Shown piece after piece: positions 5,368-54,148 of a stretch of 64,000 bases of DNA. Source of the DNA: Mytilus edulis (taxonomy: Eukaryota); the NCBI RefSeq assembly GCF_963676685.1, contig NC_092357.1, forward strand, positions 14,446,001 to 14,510,000, given 5' to 3'. Both the position numbers and the translations under genes were made by a program. The notes beneath the pieces were generated by a model, which was given only the letters and a program-made list of their open reading frames with translations, had not been told where the DNA came from and did no database searches. The first letter of the stretch is position 1, and each line of letters begins with the position of its first letter.

Positions 5368-6879
5368 GTTTAGTTTAAACATATTTTATTTGCATAAGTA
5401 GCAAAAGGGATTGGACACAAGTTATAACAACATTAGAGACGTCCTCTCCCAATATAAATATAAACACAAAGTACATTAGATAATGGCGAAAAAAAGAAAA
5501 AAAAACATAGTAGTAATGCATGTAATACATACTTCAAACAAAAATTAGAAATAAAAAGAAAAAAAAAATACAATATAATAAGGAATAATAATGAAACAAC
5601 TGGACTGGAGTGAAAGGTTGTAAAGTAGAAATTTAGAACGTTAATTGATTGTTTTAAATCTTTGTGTTATTCTGATATAAGATTGTACGGACTCAAAAAT
5701 GTCTTTTTTTTGCTGAAAAGAAAGGTCACCGTCACCAGCCAACAGAAGCTCAATGGATATGGCATAACGTTCTAATTTAGAAAACAGTATTTCTCTTGCT
5801 TCGTTGTGAAAAGCGCACTCTAAAAAATAGTGTATACTATCCTCAACAGGGTGGCCACAGCTGCATGCCGGATTTGCTTTAATATTAACACGATGTAAAT
5901 CTGAATTTAAAGAACTGCACATATTTCTCAAACGTGTATGAATGATATTAAGTTTTCTATCCCCACAACTAAAATAGGAAGGTGGCTGTATCAATTTGGA
6001 CTTCATCTTTCGTTTAAAAATATTTATATTTTTGGACGTACGTATGTCGGGGGTAAGTCTATTCCATTCAATAGTAGTGGATGGGAAAAAGGATTTTCTA
6101 GTTATGTCTAGTCTATAACCGGGTACTACATAATTATTACTGTTTCGCAAATCGTAGTTAGATACTTGACCAACAAGCGGGGGCATTAAATCACAGAGAT
6201 AATCAGGGGCAGTCCCATTATGTAAAGAATAAAACATATTGAGCTTTCTGGATTTTCTTCTGTCTACAAGCAATTGCCAGCCAGTTTCAAAATATATAGC
6301 TTCCCGACTAGCAAACACGGGCAACCCAGTTACTAACCTCCCTGCTTCTAACTGAACATGTTCTAAATTGTCGGCTTCTTGTTGAGTACAACCATCCCAT
6401 AACTCACATGCATATTCCATAACGGGTCTTATAAAAGTTAAATATATACGAGCAAGATAATTTCTATTCAATACATATTTCATTTTTTTAAGAACATTTA
6501 ATCTTGTGCTTGCACACTTTAAAATATTTTCTATATGGGTATGGAATTTACCATTGGAATCAAAAGTAATCCCTAAGTGTTTATGACAGGAGACAAATTC
6601 TACTAATTGGTTTTGAAATTCTATTTCAATATCATCTGGGGAAGTATGGCAGGAGAATATCATAGCCTTTGTCTTATTAGGGTTAAAATTAATAAGCCAA
6701 TCTTTAGACCATACTGAAATTTGTTCTAAATCGCTGTTTAAGACTTCCTCTATAGTGTAAGGGTTATTGCTGGAATAAGAAAGAGATGTATCATCAGCAA
6801 ACAATCGAGTTAGACTTGTCAAATTATCAGCTATGTCATTTACATAAATAAGAAATAGTAGGGGACCTAATACGGAGCC
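5368..6879 (-). mobile_element. 5'-truncated CR1/L2-group non-LTR retrotransposon (RT C-terminal half, 3'UTR, short AAACT tail)
   Basis: Uninterrupted frame GSVLGPLLFLIYVNDIADNLTSLTRLFADD...HLGITFD...YACELWD...CSCGHPVEDSIHYFLEC to stop at 5641. The 3' end is aataaaatatgtttaaactaaact. Candidate TSD TTGTTA at 5362-5367 and 6880-6885. Confidence 0.9.
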
Positions 6880-7149
6880 TTGTTAATTGAATATAAAATG
6901 TTTAACGGATTGATGAGTTTGATCATTTACAAGTTTACTAAACCAATTAAATTCCCCAAACTCTCCCGGCGCACACATCTACTTAAGCTTGTTAAATTTG
7001 TGATTTGGCCAATTTTAGGGGAACTACCTAAATGTATAAATAGTAAGTCAATCAAACTTGGTATGCAGTTATATTACACATCTCAATGCTATGGAAATTG
7101 ATGATTGACTTTGAAACCTTGTCATAGTTTTATTACATGTTTTGCAGTG

Positions 7150-8261: not shown

Positions 8262-9830
8262 GTAATTCCAAACACATCTCATAGAAGAAGGTCTTAAACC
8301 TGAAACCTCATAAAGCTACTGGTCCACACTCAATACCATCCTGTTTACTAAAGGCAGTAGCAGAACTTGCTTCTATACTCACAGACACAGACCTATACCA
8401 AGCATCATTAAACACTGGCGAAGTCCCGCAAGATTGGAGAAATGCCCATGTAGTTCCCCTTTTCAAAAAAGACGAAAGGCACTTAGCATCTAATTACAGA
8501 CCAGTATCTCTAACTTCCATCACATCTTAGGTCTTAGAACATATTGTACATAGCAACATTATGGACCACATGGACAAAAATAAAATACTTACTGATGTAC
8601 AACACGGATTCCGCAAAAGACAATCTTGCGAAACCCAACTTAATACATTATAACCATCAACGACATTGAATCAAAACTGAAAAGCAGCAGCCAAGTAGAC
8701 ATCATCCTGATAGACTTTGGAAAAACTTTTGACAAGGTACAACATCACCGCCTGCTACACAAGCTGTAATACTATGGCGTAAATCCCAAAATCAGCAAAT
8801 GGATTTGCTACTTTCTACATAGCAGAAAGCAGAGCGTAATACTAGAGGAAGCTGCCTCCACGCAAGAACCAGTACTCTCTGGTGTACTCCACGGTACAGT
8901 CCTTGGACCATAACTGTTCCTGGTCTACATTAACGACATTCCAGAAACAGCATCAGAGACCAAATTATTCGCGGATGACAGCCTACTCTTTTGTACCATC
9001 ACCAACCAAATAGACAGTGGACTTCTCCAGAAAGACTTATCGGCAATGGGAGACTGGCAAAACAAATGGCAAATGAGTTTCAATCCAAAAACAAACCTTG
9101 TCATTAGAATATCACAAAAATACCATCCAGTGATACAAACAACATACAAACTATACGGTCACAATCTAGACAGAATCAAAGCTAGCAAATACCTTGTAGT
9201 GACCATCAGCAACAATCTAACCTCGGATAGACACATAGACAATACAGTAAGCAAAGGTAATAGATCTCTTTGATTTGTACTTAGAAATATATAAAAGGCT
9301 GTACAAAACCTTTAAAGGCATATAGTATGGACCCTAACGACCAAAAATAAAATCAAGGCAATTTAACAGAAAAGAGCAGCAAGATTTATGAATAACAACT
9401 ACACAGACCGAACACTTGGCTGTGTCACAAAAATGGTAAACACTATAAATTGACCTCGAAGAACGGAGGAAAACAAACAGACTATGCATGCCATTGAAGA
9501 TCCAGAATGATCTTATAGACAAAGACCATCATCAATATTTAACCCCAAATAATAACCGAACCAGAGGATAAAAACGGCTTCTACCAAGAGAGAACAAGTA
9601 CAGATGCCTACATTGTACGACCAATCTTTCTTTCAGAGGACCATCAGGGATTAGAACAACTTACAAACATCAGATTCATCAGCCAAAACAATTGGGAGAT
9701 TTAGAGCTGTCCTAAAGGCATGCTCTGAAAGGAAGTAGGCAACACCAGTTGTACATAATTTTAATTGTATTATATTGCGAACGTTTTAATTGTAAATAGC
9801 CAAGAGAACTGTGTTGCCCAACAATTTACG
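8262..9830 (+). mobile_element. Decayed CR1-group LINE reverse transcriptase fragment
   Basis: Recognisable motifs EVPQDWRNAHVVPLFKK, NYRPVSLTS, QHGFRKRQSCETQL, DFGKTFDKVQH, GVLHGTVLGP*LFLVYINDIP, KLFADD, with multiple stops and frameshifts. Confidence 0.88.
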
Positions 9831-25319: not shown

Positions 25320-25500
25320 TACTGTGGTTTCGTTATCATTAGTTGGATACCAATTTTCGTAGGTTTCAAATGTTCAACGAATTATAAGATTTCTCTAGGT
25401 TTTGTATGCAAAGATTTGTAAAACAACGAAATCAAGTATCCACGAAAATGCAAGTTTTCCTCAATCCACGAAAATTGGTACACACGAAAAAAAACGAGAG
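25320..25500. mobile_element. Partial mariner-like MITE
   Basis: Starts tactgtggtttcg...ttggataccaattttcgt; the mirror atccacgaaaattggtac lies near 25464-25482. Confidence 0.55.
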
Positions 25501-27945
25501 ATGAATGCAAGATTAATGTTAATGCTAATAGAAAAAGTTTTAATGATAAACTAGAACATTTGCATAATACATAAATAAGTAATAAATAAACTGTTTTCAC
25601 TGGTTTTATACTATGACCTGGTGATAACCAATAAAGAACCAAAAAAAAAGGAATGATCACAGTTTAGTGCTTACTACAATGAGATATCTGATTTGTATAA
25701 AAATCATGATTTGTACAATATTTACATAACATTAATGCTAAATACAAGTTTAAAATATATTCACAAGTATAGACTAGACATACATCCTATGATAAGATGG
25801 AAAACAGTATGTTATATTTAAAAGCAATTCATTGTTGAACACATTTCAGACACTTTTTAATTCCTATGTAAATGTTAGTACCCATAAATAATTAACAACA
25901 ACCCATCATGGTATTTTTTGAATCCCAAATTGATACAGGAGATCTTAAACAACTACTACGTTAAATAACGTGTTTAATAATATTACCCAGAATGCATCAG
26001 ATTCTGAAATTGAAAATACTTGTCGCTAGATCGTTTTCAGAGAACACCATTAATGTCATGCTTTACAATGGCAAATACTATTGCTGAGTTAGTTACTAGT
26101 TAACACAGGCATACTAAAGCATACATAAAAAAAAAATATGTTCATTAATTCTTTAAAAGGTTCGACTAAACTTATGTGTTACAATGTCAAAGTACAGTTT
26201 ATTTTAAACATGTTAGAATTAGTCTAATTTCAAATCACTTGTACAAGCTAGATTCGGTGAAACAATAAACAAATAACAAAATAGACAGTTTGCTAGTTCA
26301 AATTAAGCTATGTCTTAATAGAAAGACACACACTAATTTAATTAAAAAAATTAAATTTGAAGGAACAAAACCCGGCTATGTTATTTTCATTAATTTTTTT
26401 CCAAAACCATACATTTGCCCCAAAGTAAAATCTGATTAATCTTTATTAGAAGTATGAAGCGTCCTGGAATTCATTTTTATTTTGAATAATAAAAAACTGG
26501 TCAAAACCTCAAAAAACTTTTTCTCTTTTTTGAAATCATAGTACTATATCAGACCTTTTTTTCATATCATAAATTTGGATCAAAGAAATACAATTTTGTT
26601 TTTTTAACATTTTTATTTGCAATTGGAAGGTCAGAAATAATGTAGTTAATTGAAAATATCAATGAATAAATATATAGGCTACAGTAGTATACCGTTGTTC
26701 AGTAGTCATAATTCGATAATATATTATTTTACACAGGTTATCTGAAATTTAAAAGGTTGAATTTTGTAAAAAGATACTTAAAGGTATATATCTTTATGTT
26801 ATTTAATCTATACCGATTCCTTTAAAATCAAATGGTTTGATGGATATTTACAAATATGACTCAATGCTATAGCATGCTATATCGTGGCGTTTGCCTCATG
26901 ATGAATTATGCTTTATTGTGGCGACTGGTGATAACTAATTTGACAATCATATCATTATTTGGCAAACATATTACGTTTTTGGCAGATAATTAGAAATTCC
27001 AAATGTAAATATAATGAGTTATGAAAGTTATCTTTTCATTTTGAACAAGAAAGATTCATTATGAGGTTAACAAGATGAAATATAACAACTGTTTGCTGCA
27101 ACATGTCGTTATTTTAGAAAAATCATAAACTTAATCAATGCAAAAAGTAAAAGAATACTAGTTTTTAAGCTCAAATTGCAGTTGGGAAAGTGAATATATA
27201 CTACTGTGTATATGTATTGAAAAAAATATATAAATAGATTTTTTTTCCGAATATTTTGAGGTTATAAAAAAAGTACATCTTTCAGGTTTTATACTATGAT
27301 ATTCTATGTAAAAAGGCGTCAGAATGATGCTAATGATTTTGAAGGTTAGCACTATTACATTATTTGCTATTTCCGCCCATCATGTTCATAAATGAATGAT
27401 AAAAAGATGAGAATACATTAAATTTGAACAAGATATCGTAGTAATAAATGGTATATCTTTAGACTGTATATGTACTATGTTAAATTGTGCCATCTACAAA
27501 TAGGTACTTATTCAGAAGAAATTATAAAGTTCCATTTTGCATTGAATTTAATGCCAAAACCCCTTAAATTCTCTAGTCTGGTTTTGTTCGATGCACATTG
27601 TGAAGTTAAGATATGAATTTTTATGTCTGGGTTTTGATTTGAATATGTTTTTGTGATGAATATGTCAAAATAATATGCGTTATATAAAAACATTTTATGA
27701 TTTTGAATTTTGCATATGAATTGCTCCATTGCAATAATCATTGTTTTATATATAAATATGTATAGTTCTAACAAAATTTGACTTTGCTACATAGTTGTCA
27801 GAAAACAAGGCACATTGAATGGAAAAAATACAATGATATGCCATATCTGATTATGAGGTTTACATTCACATAACGATTACATTTTTTTAAGCGATCGTAA
27901 AAGAGTTTCTTTTATCTATTAATGATTGAATGATTAGTTTGACAC

Positions 27946-28023
27946 ATAGTAACTCACAGTAGAAACATGTTATAGTTACTCACAGTAGAAATATGTTATA
28001 GTTACTCACAGTAGAAACATGTT
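27946..28023. repeat. 26-bp tandem repeat, 3 copies, in the putative 3'UTR
   Basis: atagttactcacagtagaaacatgtt x3. Confidence 0.9.
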
Positions 28024-28830
28024 TTCTTGTTCATTATTGTTTTATCAACCTTTTTTTATTTTCCTTATTTTAAAGCAGCGCTTCTAAGTAAATTGTGTTT
28101 AATATTATTCATTTGGTGCTCAAAATTATCATGAATTGGAATTTTTGAGATGGTATTTTTTTTTTTAAATTTAAGTTTATTAGAGAAAATATAAAAATGT
28201 ACTTTCAACGGTACAAATTAAACCACGATCTATCATTTCCATCCAATTTTACATTCTTCAAATACATAATACAAACATATATAATTCTAAAAACTACCAA
28301 TAATCTATCCGATGGTTACTATTTACATTTTACAATTGAAATGTACATTTACTTAACATAATAAAATATGAAAACACAACTGCAAAATAAGTATTTGCAT
28401 AATATGCAATTTCCATCATCAATTCCATAATTATCTAACAACAAACAGCTGTCACGTGACTTGTCTCTTGAAATACAGTAGCACCGTTGGTTGGAAATAA
28501 CGAAACAATTTCCAGAAATGTGTATACATCACCTTCCACATTCTTTGAGGGTCTGAAAAGGTTTTTTTTTTATCTTATCGTTAATTTTTCTGCAAAATTT
28601 TATTTGCTTGATCTATTTTTTCAATTATTTTCTGTTCTTTATATTCAAGTATTTTTTTGTTCTGTATTCTCTAATCCCCTTCCAGACCCTCTGATATTAC
28701 TGTCATTCTTCGCTTAATTGGACGGTGATTCTTATTATTATGAAACATGCATTTATGTAATGATTAAGAGAAATGCAATGTTCAAAACACTGTTCTTCAG
28801 AGACTCGGAGTCTGTGTCTGCGCTAATTGT

Positions 28831-28992
28831 TTAAACCTCGGTTTCGAAAGATGATTGGCTGATATCACCATTCGGAAGGTTGAGATCATCTGATAGTAAA
28901 ATATCGGAAACTCTCTGACCTTGTGTACCTTCTCCATCATCAAATGCATAATACTGGATTTTAACAAGTTTCAGTAGTTTTTGTGCGGTTAG
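28831..28992 (-). CDS. inx: Putative C-terminal readthrough extension of innexin (53 aa, ends ETEV)
   Basis: After TGA (28995-28993) the frame continues CTA ACC GCA...GAA ACC GAG GTT TAA = LTAQKLLKLVKIQYYAFDDGEGTQGQRVSDILLSDDLNLPNGDISQSSFETEV*. TGA-CTA context; about 38% GC by hand count. Confidence 0.6.
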   Translation of the reverse strand, partial: LTAQKLLKLVKIQYYAFDDGEGTQGQRVSDILLSDDLNLPNGDISQSSFETEV

Positions 28993-30196
28993 TCAGACAT
29001 TACTATTGTCATCGCTGACCTGATTAGCATGTTTAAATAATGGTTTGTTTCTATAATGGTTCCATAGGTGTAAAACTATTTCTGACACTAAAACATCATT
29101 AGCGTTTTTACCTACAAGTCTCAAAACAAAAATGCCATCTTGTCGCAAATACTGCTCAGCGAATTTGACGGCCATTTTCTTGTCTAATTCTGATTTGTAA
29201 CATTCATTAATCCTGAGAAATTTTTTCAAATAACGAATTCGGTGTTGTCTAAATATCATAGTATAACACCATACTAAGAAATTCGCCGAACTTAAAATAG
29301 ACACAAATACAAGCCAAAACCAGATAAATATAAAAATCTTCTCATTAAAAAGATTTATTGGTAGTACACATTGTACAGTGTACTGTTGGAGTGTAGCGAG
29401 TTTACGAATTTTAAAATCACATAGTGTCACCCTTGGGAACCTTGCTGATTCGTCCCATTCTTCACCACTGGCCAGATGGCTTAATACTTCAAGTCCATAT
29501 GCGTTGTAATTTGTCCCTAGAAATTCATTTAAAATGAATAACTGTCCAATAGCATTCGACATGTATAGTAATTTAATAAACATATATATGGTGACAAGAT
29601 AATTTCCATAACGTTTTCCACATACTATACAACAGTATTTTGAAATAGTTTGACGCAAGCGTATAAAACATCCGGATCTATATTCACGTGCATTTTCCAA
29701 CCATCTGTCCATGTAACGTACTATGTGTTTTATAGTTCGTTCCCTATCATCTGGAGAAATATACTGTGTTTCCGCTGCAAGTGTGACTATTTTATCCAAA
29801 TTGACACCAGCCGACGCTGTTAAAATTCTCCACATAATACATGGGACCTTAAACAACAAGGCTTGGAATAACAAGATCATCGGAACCCACTGGTAGTATG
29901 TAATCTCGCTTTCATATCTCGCGTGATTGTACTTCGGAATATCTTTGTCAATATGGACGTAGTATGTATTGGATATCCAACATACATTGTTAGTGTAGTC
30001 AACCATAGACTCCTTGAATTCAGCCGGACACCAGCAGTGGATTGGCTCGCCCACATACTGCTTCGTACTAACAACAATGGTAAAAATGATGAAAATTATA
30101 GTCGTGTATAAATGATTTAACCTATCGATCCAGTCGTCATCGTAACGACCTTTTAACCTTGCATATGTGGCGAAGCTTCCGAGGACACTGTCAAGC
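28993..30196 (-). CDS. inx: Innexin (invertebrate gap-junction/pannexin family), main coding exon
   Basis: The ORF track protein (28993..30054) extends upstream in frame by 47 codons (LDSVLGSFATYARLKGRYDDDWIDRLNHLYTTIIFIIFTIVVSTKQY) to a pyrimidine-rich acceptor ttttatctttttAG|G at 30198-30197. Innexin signatures: DDWIDRL, QYVGEPIHCWCP, NVCW, YYQWVP, FPRVTLCDF, QCVLPINLFNEKIFIFIWFW; four hydrophobic segments; two Cys pairs in the extracellular loops. Confidence 0.96.
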
Positions 30197-32839
30197 CTAA
30201 AAAGATAAAAGAAAATGAAAAATTAATAAAATTGACTCTGAAATAGTTTAATGCAAATACTGGTATAACAAGTCGTGAAAGAAAGTACGTTTGAGTAAAG
30301 AGAAAATTCATATGCTATACTGGATATCTGCTTCACAGATATACATGTATTTTCAGTGGAGGTAGGGTAGCATGATACATACAGTCTCTAGGTATATGTG
30401 CATCCATGCGTGGAGCTTCGTATTGTACAGTAACTATAAGACATAATAACCTTCTCATGAAGTTCGATGATTACATTTTTTTTTTAAACAGCAAAACAAA
30501 AACAAAAAACAAAACACAACGAATATGTGTAGACTTATGCTATATATTATATTTATACATGATATATGCCAACATTTACAACGATCGGGTGAACAAGAAT
30601 ACTTAGAGCTAACACAATTCTTTTCTTTTTGCGTATTCGATGGATAATTAACTCAAAATAATACCAGCCTAGTTCATGGAGATTGCTGGTGATATCCTGC
30701 ATGCCAGATAGAAGATACATTACATTATTTAACAGACTGTGAATCTCCATCCTACTACAATTGGCGTTTTTAACATTTCAGATTCGAGCGTAGCTGACGA
30801 GTCGTTCAAAGACGAAACGCGCGTCTTGCGTACAACATTTTAATCGTTGTGTATATGATGCTTTTATCTTATAATACGTCAGCAATGATGTGCAATGCAC
30901 TATGTATGAAATTAAAAGCTTATTAATCATTTAACAATGAACAAAAGGTTTGATATGCAATTTGAATGCTCAGAACCACAACTTTTAGTAGTTGTTTTTA
31001 TTGTCGGTAGACAAGTAATAAAGTAATAGTGTTATTACATTTCAATGCTAATGAACAAAAAAGTACAGAATATGAAACGAGATCAATTTCCGTGCACTGA
31101 AACAACATCCTCTGTTAATGTCATGCGCAGCAATAGACATGCAAATTTAGTTAAATGAAAGACATCAGGTAATGAACCAGAGGAAGCATTATTCTTGTTG
31201 ATGAAAATTTAATATGGCGTTAACATGCATCGCATGTCCAGGGTGATTAAAATGTTTAATACTGCTATATTATAAGACATATCAATAAACACTTCCATGA
31301 TCTAGACCAGTTATGATGGCGGGATACAGTTGCGTCATCTAAAGTTGATGTTTAGGTAACTGTAAAACATGTTAATTAATTAATTATTTATTGTTGAACA
31401 ACTAATGAACTTTTAATACAATGAGACTTTTTTTTAATCTCTGGTTAACCAGTATGGAGTGTGCAAACTAGTTATGTTGGTGTTTGAGGTGAACAGCAGG
31501 AGATCATATACAAAATATCATTTTTGCATGATAGAAATCAATTTTCTATTGACAATTAATGTTATCATATTTTGACAGGTAAAAGTTATTGTATGATTCA
31601 ATAACATGGTATGACTAACCTACTGAGTCTGGAAAAAATATCATTTATCGGTTATTCAAAGTTGGATATCAAAAAGGGTTTCTGGCAATGTTACAGCTAC
31701 CTCTAATATCTTGTGTTTACAATTGTAAATTATTGGTTTGATTTTAAATAGACCATAGAAAATTGAAAACTGTGTCTTGAACGTAGAGTACAAACTCTAA
31801 TAGCCAATATATTCACATGTAAGGGCCTGTAGAACATATATAGCATGCATACCAAGTATAAATCTCAATGTTTATATCTTTGTCATGCGTTTAGTCAACA
31901 AAAAATAAATATTAGAAATGTATTTTTATATTAACAATTACTGTTAAAGAAATGTTTAAGGAAGTCCTTTTCTCTTTCCATATCTATTGTCGTGCTACTC
32001 AATATATAACAAATCAGAATTGGTTTGTAGTTTTGTAAGGTCTTTCCCTTGTTGCATCTAAAGCGTCAATTCTCCTTATTGTGCCCCATTTTATATAAAA
32101 CATGTTTGAATAGCAATTTTTGCCACAATGAAAAGAAATCCATTGAGATCAATAAAAGAGAATATTAGATAAAGAGTTAGCAAACATTATTGTCAATTTC
32201 TATTATTAATACCTAAATTCCAAATACTATTTGTGTTTGCTAAATATTGGTCTATTGTTTTGACGAGTGATTTATTACTAGTTGTATACTATTGATACAC
32301 AATCTAAAATTCTATAGAAAAATACTCCATGAATGTCAAAATTTAAATTTGCAATAAGAATGTTTTGATTTGATACGGGGATCTTCAATTACAATGGAAA
32401 TAATGACTTCGGTAAACATCGTCAAGAATCGCTAAACATCGGTTTACAATACTTGTACAAAATCCTATTATAGTTTTATTCAGCTTCAATTATTTTTGTT
32501 ATTTCTAAATTTTTGCAAAATCATGATTTTTATAACTTGCAATTAACCCACATGTTTTTATTTATTCAAGTTATCTAATGTAATTTAGAAATCGTCAATC
32601 ATAGCATCTGCAGATTCAACAAAGATAAGAGTTATTGAACTGAAAAAAGTTAATAGAAAATAGTGTTAGATTATTCTAATAATGTATTGCCATGAATGTT
32701 ACATGATGTATATATTGTTTTTTTCTCTATTTAATACGTTTGTTTAAATATGTTAGTTAAATGTGCACTTATCAAATGTATGTATTACATTTATTCTTTC
32801 AATCAGTGACATTTTTCTAATGAAAACGGTATCATGGTA

Positions 32840-53754: not shown

Positions 53755-53759
53755 ATCAT
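53755..53759 (-). CDS. inx: Innexin alternative first exon 1b, coding part (ATG AT); 5'UTR probably extends to ~54150
   Basis: Minus strand reads gacgaa ATG AT|GTAAGT, a perfect donor in phase 2. Joining to the G at 30196 gives ATG ATG CTT GAC = MMLDSVLG, a typical short innexin N-terminus. Intron 30197..53754 (23,558 bp); product 402 aa. Confidence 0.62.
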
Positions 53760-54148
53760 TTCGTCTTTAGGAATAGGTTTATACGCAAATTTCTTTCGAA
53801 AAAGAAAACATATCATTTCTAATTCAAATCCCTAGATGCAAATAAATCTCCACCGCCAATATCCTGCAACTCATTCTTAACTTCTATAATTATTCCTATA
53901 ACAATCCTGCTGCCTTTACTGAACAAAATCTGCCATACTTTATTCCGAAGGTATGTTCTTCCGAAGGTATGTTCCGAAGGTAGCAATCGATGCTTCTACC
54001 TTGTTCACCTATTATAAACTGGAATATATTTACATTCACCGGTTCCATTGCTATCGTTGGACATCAATAATTTAAACAGAGGATCGGAGAACGTGTAAGT
54101 AAATAGTAAAGGGTTATTATTGTATGCAGACCTGATGAATAGCGTTAG

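Follow-up and report, generated by a model that had tools for sequence, protein, structure and literature searches.

Conservation supports probable UGA-CUA readthrough in a bivalve innexin, with a predicted class I PDZ-type ligand at the end of the extension

A stop codon UGA with CUA after it is the smallest context for high readthrough, both in human cells and in a fungus (PMC4359377; PMC4207609). In the accessible part of a reporter study (PMC12233894), readthrough was 0.6 to 2.3% in one set, and another set gave 3.9 to 31% for several genes with CUA G. The readthrough products MDH1x and LDHBx share the UGA CU(A) context with the innexin described here, and also a conserved hidden C-terminal address (PMC4207609; PMC5133446; PMC4359377); as far as the available sections of these papers go, Trp or Arg is placed at the stop (both being inserted in MDH1, PMC5133446), and the motif alone is enough without RNA structure. 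Unlike the ligand predicted for the innexin, their address is a cryptic PTS1, which directs peroxisomal import of soluble enzymes and not scaffold binding. OPRK1 and OPRL1 have UGA CUA readthrough extensions listed with a class I PDZ end, as does the innexin (PMC4999894, in part); however, they are GPCRs and not oligomeric channels, and their motif is predicted only. Among innexins, Drosophila Inx2 and Zpg show footprints past the stop and are readthrough candidates (PMC4999894 supplement, attributed there to Dunn et al. 2013). The Inx2 extension starts with Leu, as does the bivalve one, but the Inx2 and Zpg extensions (41/34 and 14 amino acids) look unlike it by eye, and the portion of the source at hand gives no function for them; none of the 17 motif rows that the supplement gives for Inx2 is a PDZ motif, and rows for Zpg are absent. 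Inx2 and Zpg as readthrough candidates, and PDZ-type readthrough ends in OPRK1, OPRL1, and AQP4, are already known from the accessible parts of this literature. No innexin readthrough extension with a PDZ end is reported in the literature covered by our listing, outside which most subscription papers fall. Innexin and mollusc terms are absent from the main text and two of the three supplementary files of Jungreis 2016, and the Lymnaea innexin paper with its one supplement contains no 3′ sequence and no mention of PDZ.

We analyzed a window of Mytilus edulis DNA, by which we mean the whole stretch of 64,000 nucleotides. An innexin open frame of 409 codons lies on its minus strand (30222–28993), and a full-length match to the innexin profile PF00876 is found upstream of the TGA (348.7 bits against a cut-off of 25, E = 4e-104). 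The C. elegans INX-6 structure matches the main-exon product (E = 5e-51). The features of the gene are listed in Table 1.

Table 1. Features of the innexin gene and of its candidate readthrough extension in the window
Feature	Position	Strand	Remarks
Alternative first exon, coding end ATG AT then GT donor	53755..53759	-	Loose contig ends at 30196
Main innexin coding exon to first stop	28996..30196	-	400 codons plus one base; PF00876; contig starts at 30196
Short tail end S-N-V, part of DDNSNV; class I PDZ-type motif	28996..29004	-	Ortholog records
First stop with readthrough context TGA CTA ACC	28987..28995	-	Same 9 nt in window, L030, and L031
Extension start, 14 codons: conserved basic/hydrophobic segment LTAQKLLKLVKIQY	28951..28992	-	Predicted low-confidence helix
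Variable acidic linker, conserved N-G near its end	28846..28950	-	Predicted disordered tether, pLDDT under 50 (414–453)
Extended C-terminus E-T-E-V, class I PDZ-type motif	28834..28845	-	8/8 distinct extensions
Second stop TAA	28831..28833	-	TAA in L030, TAG in L031; conservation ends here
3′ UTR, at least this far	27500..28830	-	Contig cover

Assembled contigs bridged the TGA in all four runs (from four studies), and positions 28831–29004 were covered without another letter, a gap, or a joint. This transcript check comprised 4 of the 24 runs listed, the RNA status of which is the tool's guess, and contigs drop rare variants; in three of the four runs, the contigs extend beyond 30196 to upstream exons, as expected of spliced RNA. 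Three raw small-RNA runs gave no reads on the stretch, and a DNA-type run (X15) gave no cover. The loose ends of two contigs (X3 and X4) at 30196 match window positions 53755–53784 exactly. Splicing of this exon to 30196 encodes M-M-L-D-S-V, with a 23.6-kb intron splitting the second ATG, and yields a protein of 402 amino acids. Another first exon lies beyond the window, 74 kb from the acceptor (L062, G000:C14:14550094), and encodes M-V-H-S-F-H-H-H-H-G-L-L-D-S-V when joined to 30196; a further copy (L063) is present on contig C724. At least two alternative first exons therefore meet 30196 in phase 2, and the innexin gene is variable at both ends. Elsewhere, a unit of approximately 27 nt occurs in three head-to-tail copies within the 3′ UTR (about 27945–28025), and open frames at 5641–6882 (minus) and 8914–9273 (plus) resemble, by eye, remnants of non-LTR retroelement reverse transcriptases.

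The initial annotation read the short end as N-S-N-V and the extended end as E-T-E-V, both of the form S/T-x-V, and this reading is exact in the sequence. The codons AGT AAT GTC (S-N-V, 29004–28996) directly precede the TGA at 28995–28993 of the minus strand, CTA ACC follows as the start of 53 open codons (28992–28834), which close with SSFETEV and TAA. SNV and TEV both fit [ST]-x-[VIL] and, with a stop codon immediately behind each, would lie at a free C-terminus. In the predicted structure, pLDDT is under 50 at residues 386–404 and 414–453, which places both PDZ-type motifs in an unstructured tail. Class I ends are not unusual in innexins, as 3 of 18 paralogs in this genome and 26 of 120 search matches (15 of them orthologs) carry one.

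The short end and the stop were compared across 141 signature-bearing orthologs from 536 fetched proteins; these include isoforms and near-copies and represent 21 distinct tails over the last 30 residues. The named records, from oysters, scallops, mussels, clams, Solemya, abalones, limpets, snails, octopuses, and a chiton, bear out the description of N-S-N-V as the annotated end, and the last 26 residues of the window innexin equal those of an M. trossulus record (P0127). DDNSNV ends 127 of the 141 records and 13 read through the TGA; in the one remaining record, a divergent Mya arenaria copy (P0012), the tail has drifted to NSENDTIV, and its T-I-V end is still class I. All 13 records that read TGA as W end in ETEV, so the conservation of both motifs in orthologs that the initial annotation asked about is borne out. 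One of them (P0161), the W record checked against DNA, is L031 with TGA read as Trp.

At the DNA level, the sequence past the stop was available from three bivalve-type sources: the window and two clam-type metagenome loci (L030 and L031), which were the 2 retained of 208 candidates in a metagenome scan. The loci read AAC GTC/GTT TGA CTA ACC and end in SETEV before TAA or TAG. TGACTAACC is identical in all three DNAs, third codon positions included, and UGA then CUA, present in 3/3, matches the published minimal readthrough consensus. Position +7 is A in the three DNAs and G in a second paralog (L005); the strongest human context has G, which is not required. Because +7 is A and not G, a low rate of readthrough, possibly under 1 to 2%, is the sober guess. 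No conserved stimulatory RNA structure was found 3′ of the stop (z −0.2 to −0.8).

Several observations indicate that the extension evolves as protein. Its open length is 53 codons in the window, 51 in L030, and 49 in L031, so that only whole codons differ. Over 49 codon pairs, L030 and L031 gave pS 0.70 and pN 0.15 (pN/pS about 0.21) in the extension, compared with pS 0.96 and pN 0.03 in the innexin core; in the other two frames of the extension there were stops inside, and pN was at or above pS. The codon-position pattern was 0.80/0.84/0.55, and the local score between the loci fell from 124 for the extension to 24 for the next 147 nt. For the serine of the short tail, the window uses AGT and both L030 and L031 use TCT, which shows that the residue is kept and not the codon; likewise, ETEV (GAA ACC GAG GTT in the window) has three spellings in three DNAs.

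W-read database proteins supply an oyster-cluster extension of 48 residues, known from protein records alone, and further clam-type ones. The mussel-, oyster-, and clam-type bivalve groups split several hundred million years ago. All eight distinct extensions begin with L-T and finish with E-T-E-V, the sole four-residue block invariant among them, whereas the middle of the linker is weakly or not alignable across the three types. The window extension resembles the oyster- and clam-type ones better than any of 3000 shuffles, even after removal of the first two and last four residues; for the oyster and L030 extensions, significance was lost after the ends were trimmed (166/3000 shuffles). Of the window's 8437 in-frame stops, counted over six frames, 28 have the context TGACTA, 310 are followed by at least 49 open codons, and 69 lead to an [ST]-x-V end; only one, that of this innexin, combines the three, where the product of the rates is about 1e-6. 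This chance estimate is post hoc, so the weight is carried by conservation. A search by region with the extended tail returned only P0002 (1 of 13 candidates), the best 120 and 150 matches of searches whose alignment was dominated by the innexin core added no extension, and no locus with this innexin extension was found in the viral and prokaryote collections. From the sequence comparisons, the extension is very probably translated by readthrough.

A second innexin paralog (L005, G000:C14:5342876–5346256) has a parallel arrangement. At about 1463–1368 of its minus strand, GEDV precedes TGA CTA G, and an extension of 29 codons closes with ASTV-TAA. Of 29 innexin matches in the genome, 19 gave long frames, and TGACTA ends two of these, this gene and L005; a downstream [ST]-x-[VIL] end is found in both, as against 1 of the other 17 (Fisher p 0.018). 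An oyster-cluster record of this paralog (P0259) continues LGNG...VTHV past the stop, and only 3 of 3000 shuffles matched its likeness to the L005 extension. The PDZ-ended extension of this clade is thus represented by two sequences, one mussel (L005) and one oyster-type (P0259), and is not universal, as a cephalopod-like record (P0028) continues DRL...YNDE, without Leu or the motif, and a slug primer in the PMC8049302 supplement, in the part available and by eye, gives TAG after GEDV. The short tails of the L005 clade (EDV, ADV, and DDV) are not class I, so readthrough there would add the motif. A tree with the two readthrough paralogs as sisters was rejected (p-AU 0.0005; quick tree, 36 hand-chosen rows of 80), which means that the arrangement either had two origins or is an old one since lost elsewhere. 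Homology between the extensions of the two paralogs was not found (7 and 237 of 3000 shuffles, negative scores). Three other innexin paralogs (L018 and L019 at G000:C14:14.69–14.70 Mb, and L016) have a stop inside the match or short frames and are possibly broken or truncated copies. With both ends conserved, protein-level selection on the extension and both terminal motifs, and the parallel in the second paralog, functional UGA-CUA readthrough appending a class I PDZ ligand is, on evolutionary grounds, well supported.

Both terminal motifs have precedents as PDZ ligands. The ETEV tetrapeptide of HTLV-1 Tax, identical to the innexin's, was crystallized in PDZ1 and PDZ2 of human DLG1, and a free carboxyl is required (bioRxiv 10.1101/2023.03.15.532789, in part). 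The SNV of Kir4.1, the same tripeptide as that of the short tail, acts with PSD-95 and SAP97, the latter being DLG1 (PMC6920955, in part). These experimentally shown class I ligands belong to other proteins and hosts, with different upstream residues and no readthrough; the vertebrate precedents for the two tails overlap on Dlg-family scaffolds. The mussel genome contains at least 69 PDZ matches, LIN-7 and syntrophin types among them. When the short tail was modeled in complex with the syntrophin-type PDZ domain of this genome, the score was 0.57, compared with 0.16 for the best of three controls, and three runs agreed in at least 90% of contacts (partner pLDDT 61–64). In a benchmark without peptides, 51 of the 78 solved pairs passed the score mark, as did 2 of the 108 mismatched ones, and scores up to 0.60, the range in which 0.57 falls, include all four passing mismatches. 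As structures of syntrophin with peptides exist, the prediction may reflect likeness only, and it lends weak support to this modeled pairing.

How the two tails might work together depends on the assembly of the channel. The INX-6 hemichannel is an octamer. If the mussel innexin is one too, the share of hemichannels with at least one long subunit would be 8, 28, and 49% at 1, 4, and 8% readthrough, and all-long octamers would make up only 7e-5 even at 30% readthrough (computed). Long subunits would nearly always sit beside short ones, so the oligomer would amplify an infrequent event, with ETEV joining SNV and not replacing it. We consider it likely that ribosomes read through UGA-CUA in a few percent of cases, that a minority of innexin subunits thereby gain a tether of 48 to 53 codons ending in ETEV, a predicted PDZ ligand, and that these long subunits anchor the mixed channel to a scaffold. 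Each would be an added, stronger or farther-reaching handle (for a Dlg/LIN-7/MAGI/syntrophin type), and the other subunits of the channel would keep SNV, with no exchange of partner. Established work provides the leaky decoding of UGA CUA, the binding of ETEV to class I PDZ domains, and octameric assembly; the handle itself is what we infer here.

The initial annotation had instead proposed a PDZ-ligand switch, in which recoding would change the scaffold partner or its affinity and give a tunable ratio of two tails, for example at electrical synapses. In the form considered here, the two tails would have separate scaffolds, and channels would pass from one to the other as readthrough is regulated. 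Its premises hold in that both ends are class I and conserved, each motif separately, and that such terminal peptides are PDZ ligands elsewhere. Residues at −3 and −1 can alter PDZ preference, and these differ between the tails (N,N versus E,E). Readthrough also varies by cell type (PMC5133446; PMC4359377, in the sections available). The change of partner fares less well, because the tails are of the same PDZ class, with DLG1 shared by the Kir4.1 SNV and ETEV precedents, and because in the second paralog a motif would be gained and none swapped. The contention that recoding switches the partner rather than adding one finds no support in octamer mixing, where at 1 to 8% readthrough only 8 to 49% of octamers would hold even one long subunit, beside seven short ones, and the all-long form would be vanishingly rare. 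An added handle is thus favored over a partner switch, which we regard as unlikely, by octamer mixing and by the like behavior of AQP4ex.

Conservation of the 14-residue segment after the stop equals that of ETEV, so the extension may have a further function, or even its main one, apart from the PDZ end. AlphaFold predicts a low-confidence helix at 397–417, just past the stop (pLDDT about 50), followed by disorder to the end, and LTxxKxxxxxKxQ is kept in 8/8 extensions with a net charge of +2 to +3. The extension could accordingly act chiefly through this helix, in gating, membrane or calmodulin contact, or trafficking, with ETEV secondary. However, the helix is no more amphipathic than shuffles (p 0.23–0.44), ETEV and not this segment supplies the invariant block, and the L005-clade extension, which lacks the basic/hydrophobic segment, still ends in S/T-x-V. 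We judge a helix-first role improbable.

Other conceivable sources of the long form are A-to-I editing that turns UGA into UGG and alternative splicing that takes out the stop. A-to-I editing is common in some molluscs, and the 8-mer TGACTAAC resembles a branch point, going by the branch-point consensus. No A>G change at the stop was present in the contigs of the four runs, which drop rare variants, and no conserved splice acceptor followed TGACTAAC in the comparison of the window, L030, and L031; either route seems very improbable. That the UGA encodes selenocysteine, or that a conserved untranslated element mimics coding sequence, as the identity of the UGA and the conserved 9-mer would allow, has the slightest chance of all, given that an Rfam scan found no SECIS match in 25500–30300, L030, L031, or L005, that none of the 141 records is an extended ortholog with Cys, and that the codon-position pattern and the end of conservation at the second stop speak against an untranslated element.

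A place for the added handle may lie in the nervous system. Limax innexins 8 and 9 were cloned from the CNS, and primers of that slug study translate, by our by-eye assignment, to the tail of this innexin clade (PMC8049302, in part). In its supplement, as far as accessible, one frame of the reverse primers 3′ of innexins 8 and 9 gives, by eye, L-A-W-Y-K-V-F-K and P-T-P-E-E-T-H; the former resembles the extension start and the latter the run-up to E-T-x-V, a lead only that gastropods may keep the extension. A speculative and rather doubtful reading is that in molluscs, readthrough is a standing device that would give slowly evolving nervous-system innexins a scaffold handle, with neurons reading through more than other cells do and a few long subunits determining which gap junctions become part of scaffolded electrical synapses. 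Within it, and sharing that doubt, two non-sister paralogs would each append a class I ligand, either convergently or as an inheritance from the root of the molluscan innexin radiation. If true, this would be an invertebrate counterpart of Cx36–ZO-1, reached by the AQP4ex route. Little is known of how innexin channels are anchored at the junctions of invertebrates, and ETEV offers a concrete bait for the scaffold. A single base change removes or fixes the long form, which makes the case easily tested. Annotations of at least two molluscan innexins probably omit an isoform.

Most documented cases of functional readthrough come from flies, vertebrates, fungi, and viruses, and the present locus is a conserved molluscan candidate. 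The analogy of the initial annotation with vertebrate connexins that bind ZO-1 is loose. In the accessible text of PMC7179694, the C-terminus of Cx36 links this gap-junction protein to a MAGUK, SAYV binding PDZ1 of ZO-1, which agrees with that analogy; however, Cx36 is a connexin, innexins are not connexin homologs, SAYV is not S/T-x-V, and the ligand is constitutive. The closer likeness is to AQP4ex/AQP4x, an oligomeric membrane channel in which an S-x-V ligand (SSV) directly precedes TGA CTA (PMC6444679, in part). There, a minority long subunit assembles together with short ones, the channel depends on it for its placement, and endfoot localization is lost when the stop is tightened from TGA to TAA (PMC6444679, same part). 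AQP4 differs from the innexin in being an unrelated vertebrate protein with G at +7 (TGA-CTAG) and proven readthrough, and the end of its 29-residue extension is listed as class III, whereas that of the innexin is class I (PMC4999894, in part). The innexin would be a second, independent instance of the AQP4ex logic, in which rare long subunits steer an oligomeric channel.
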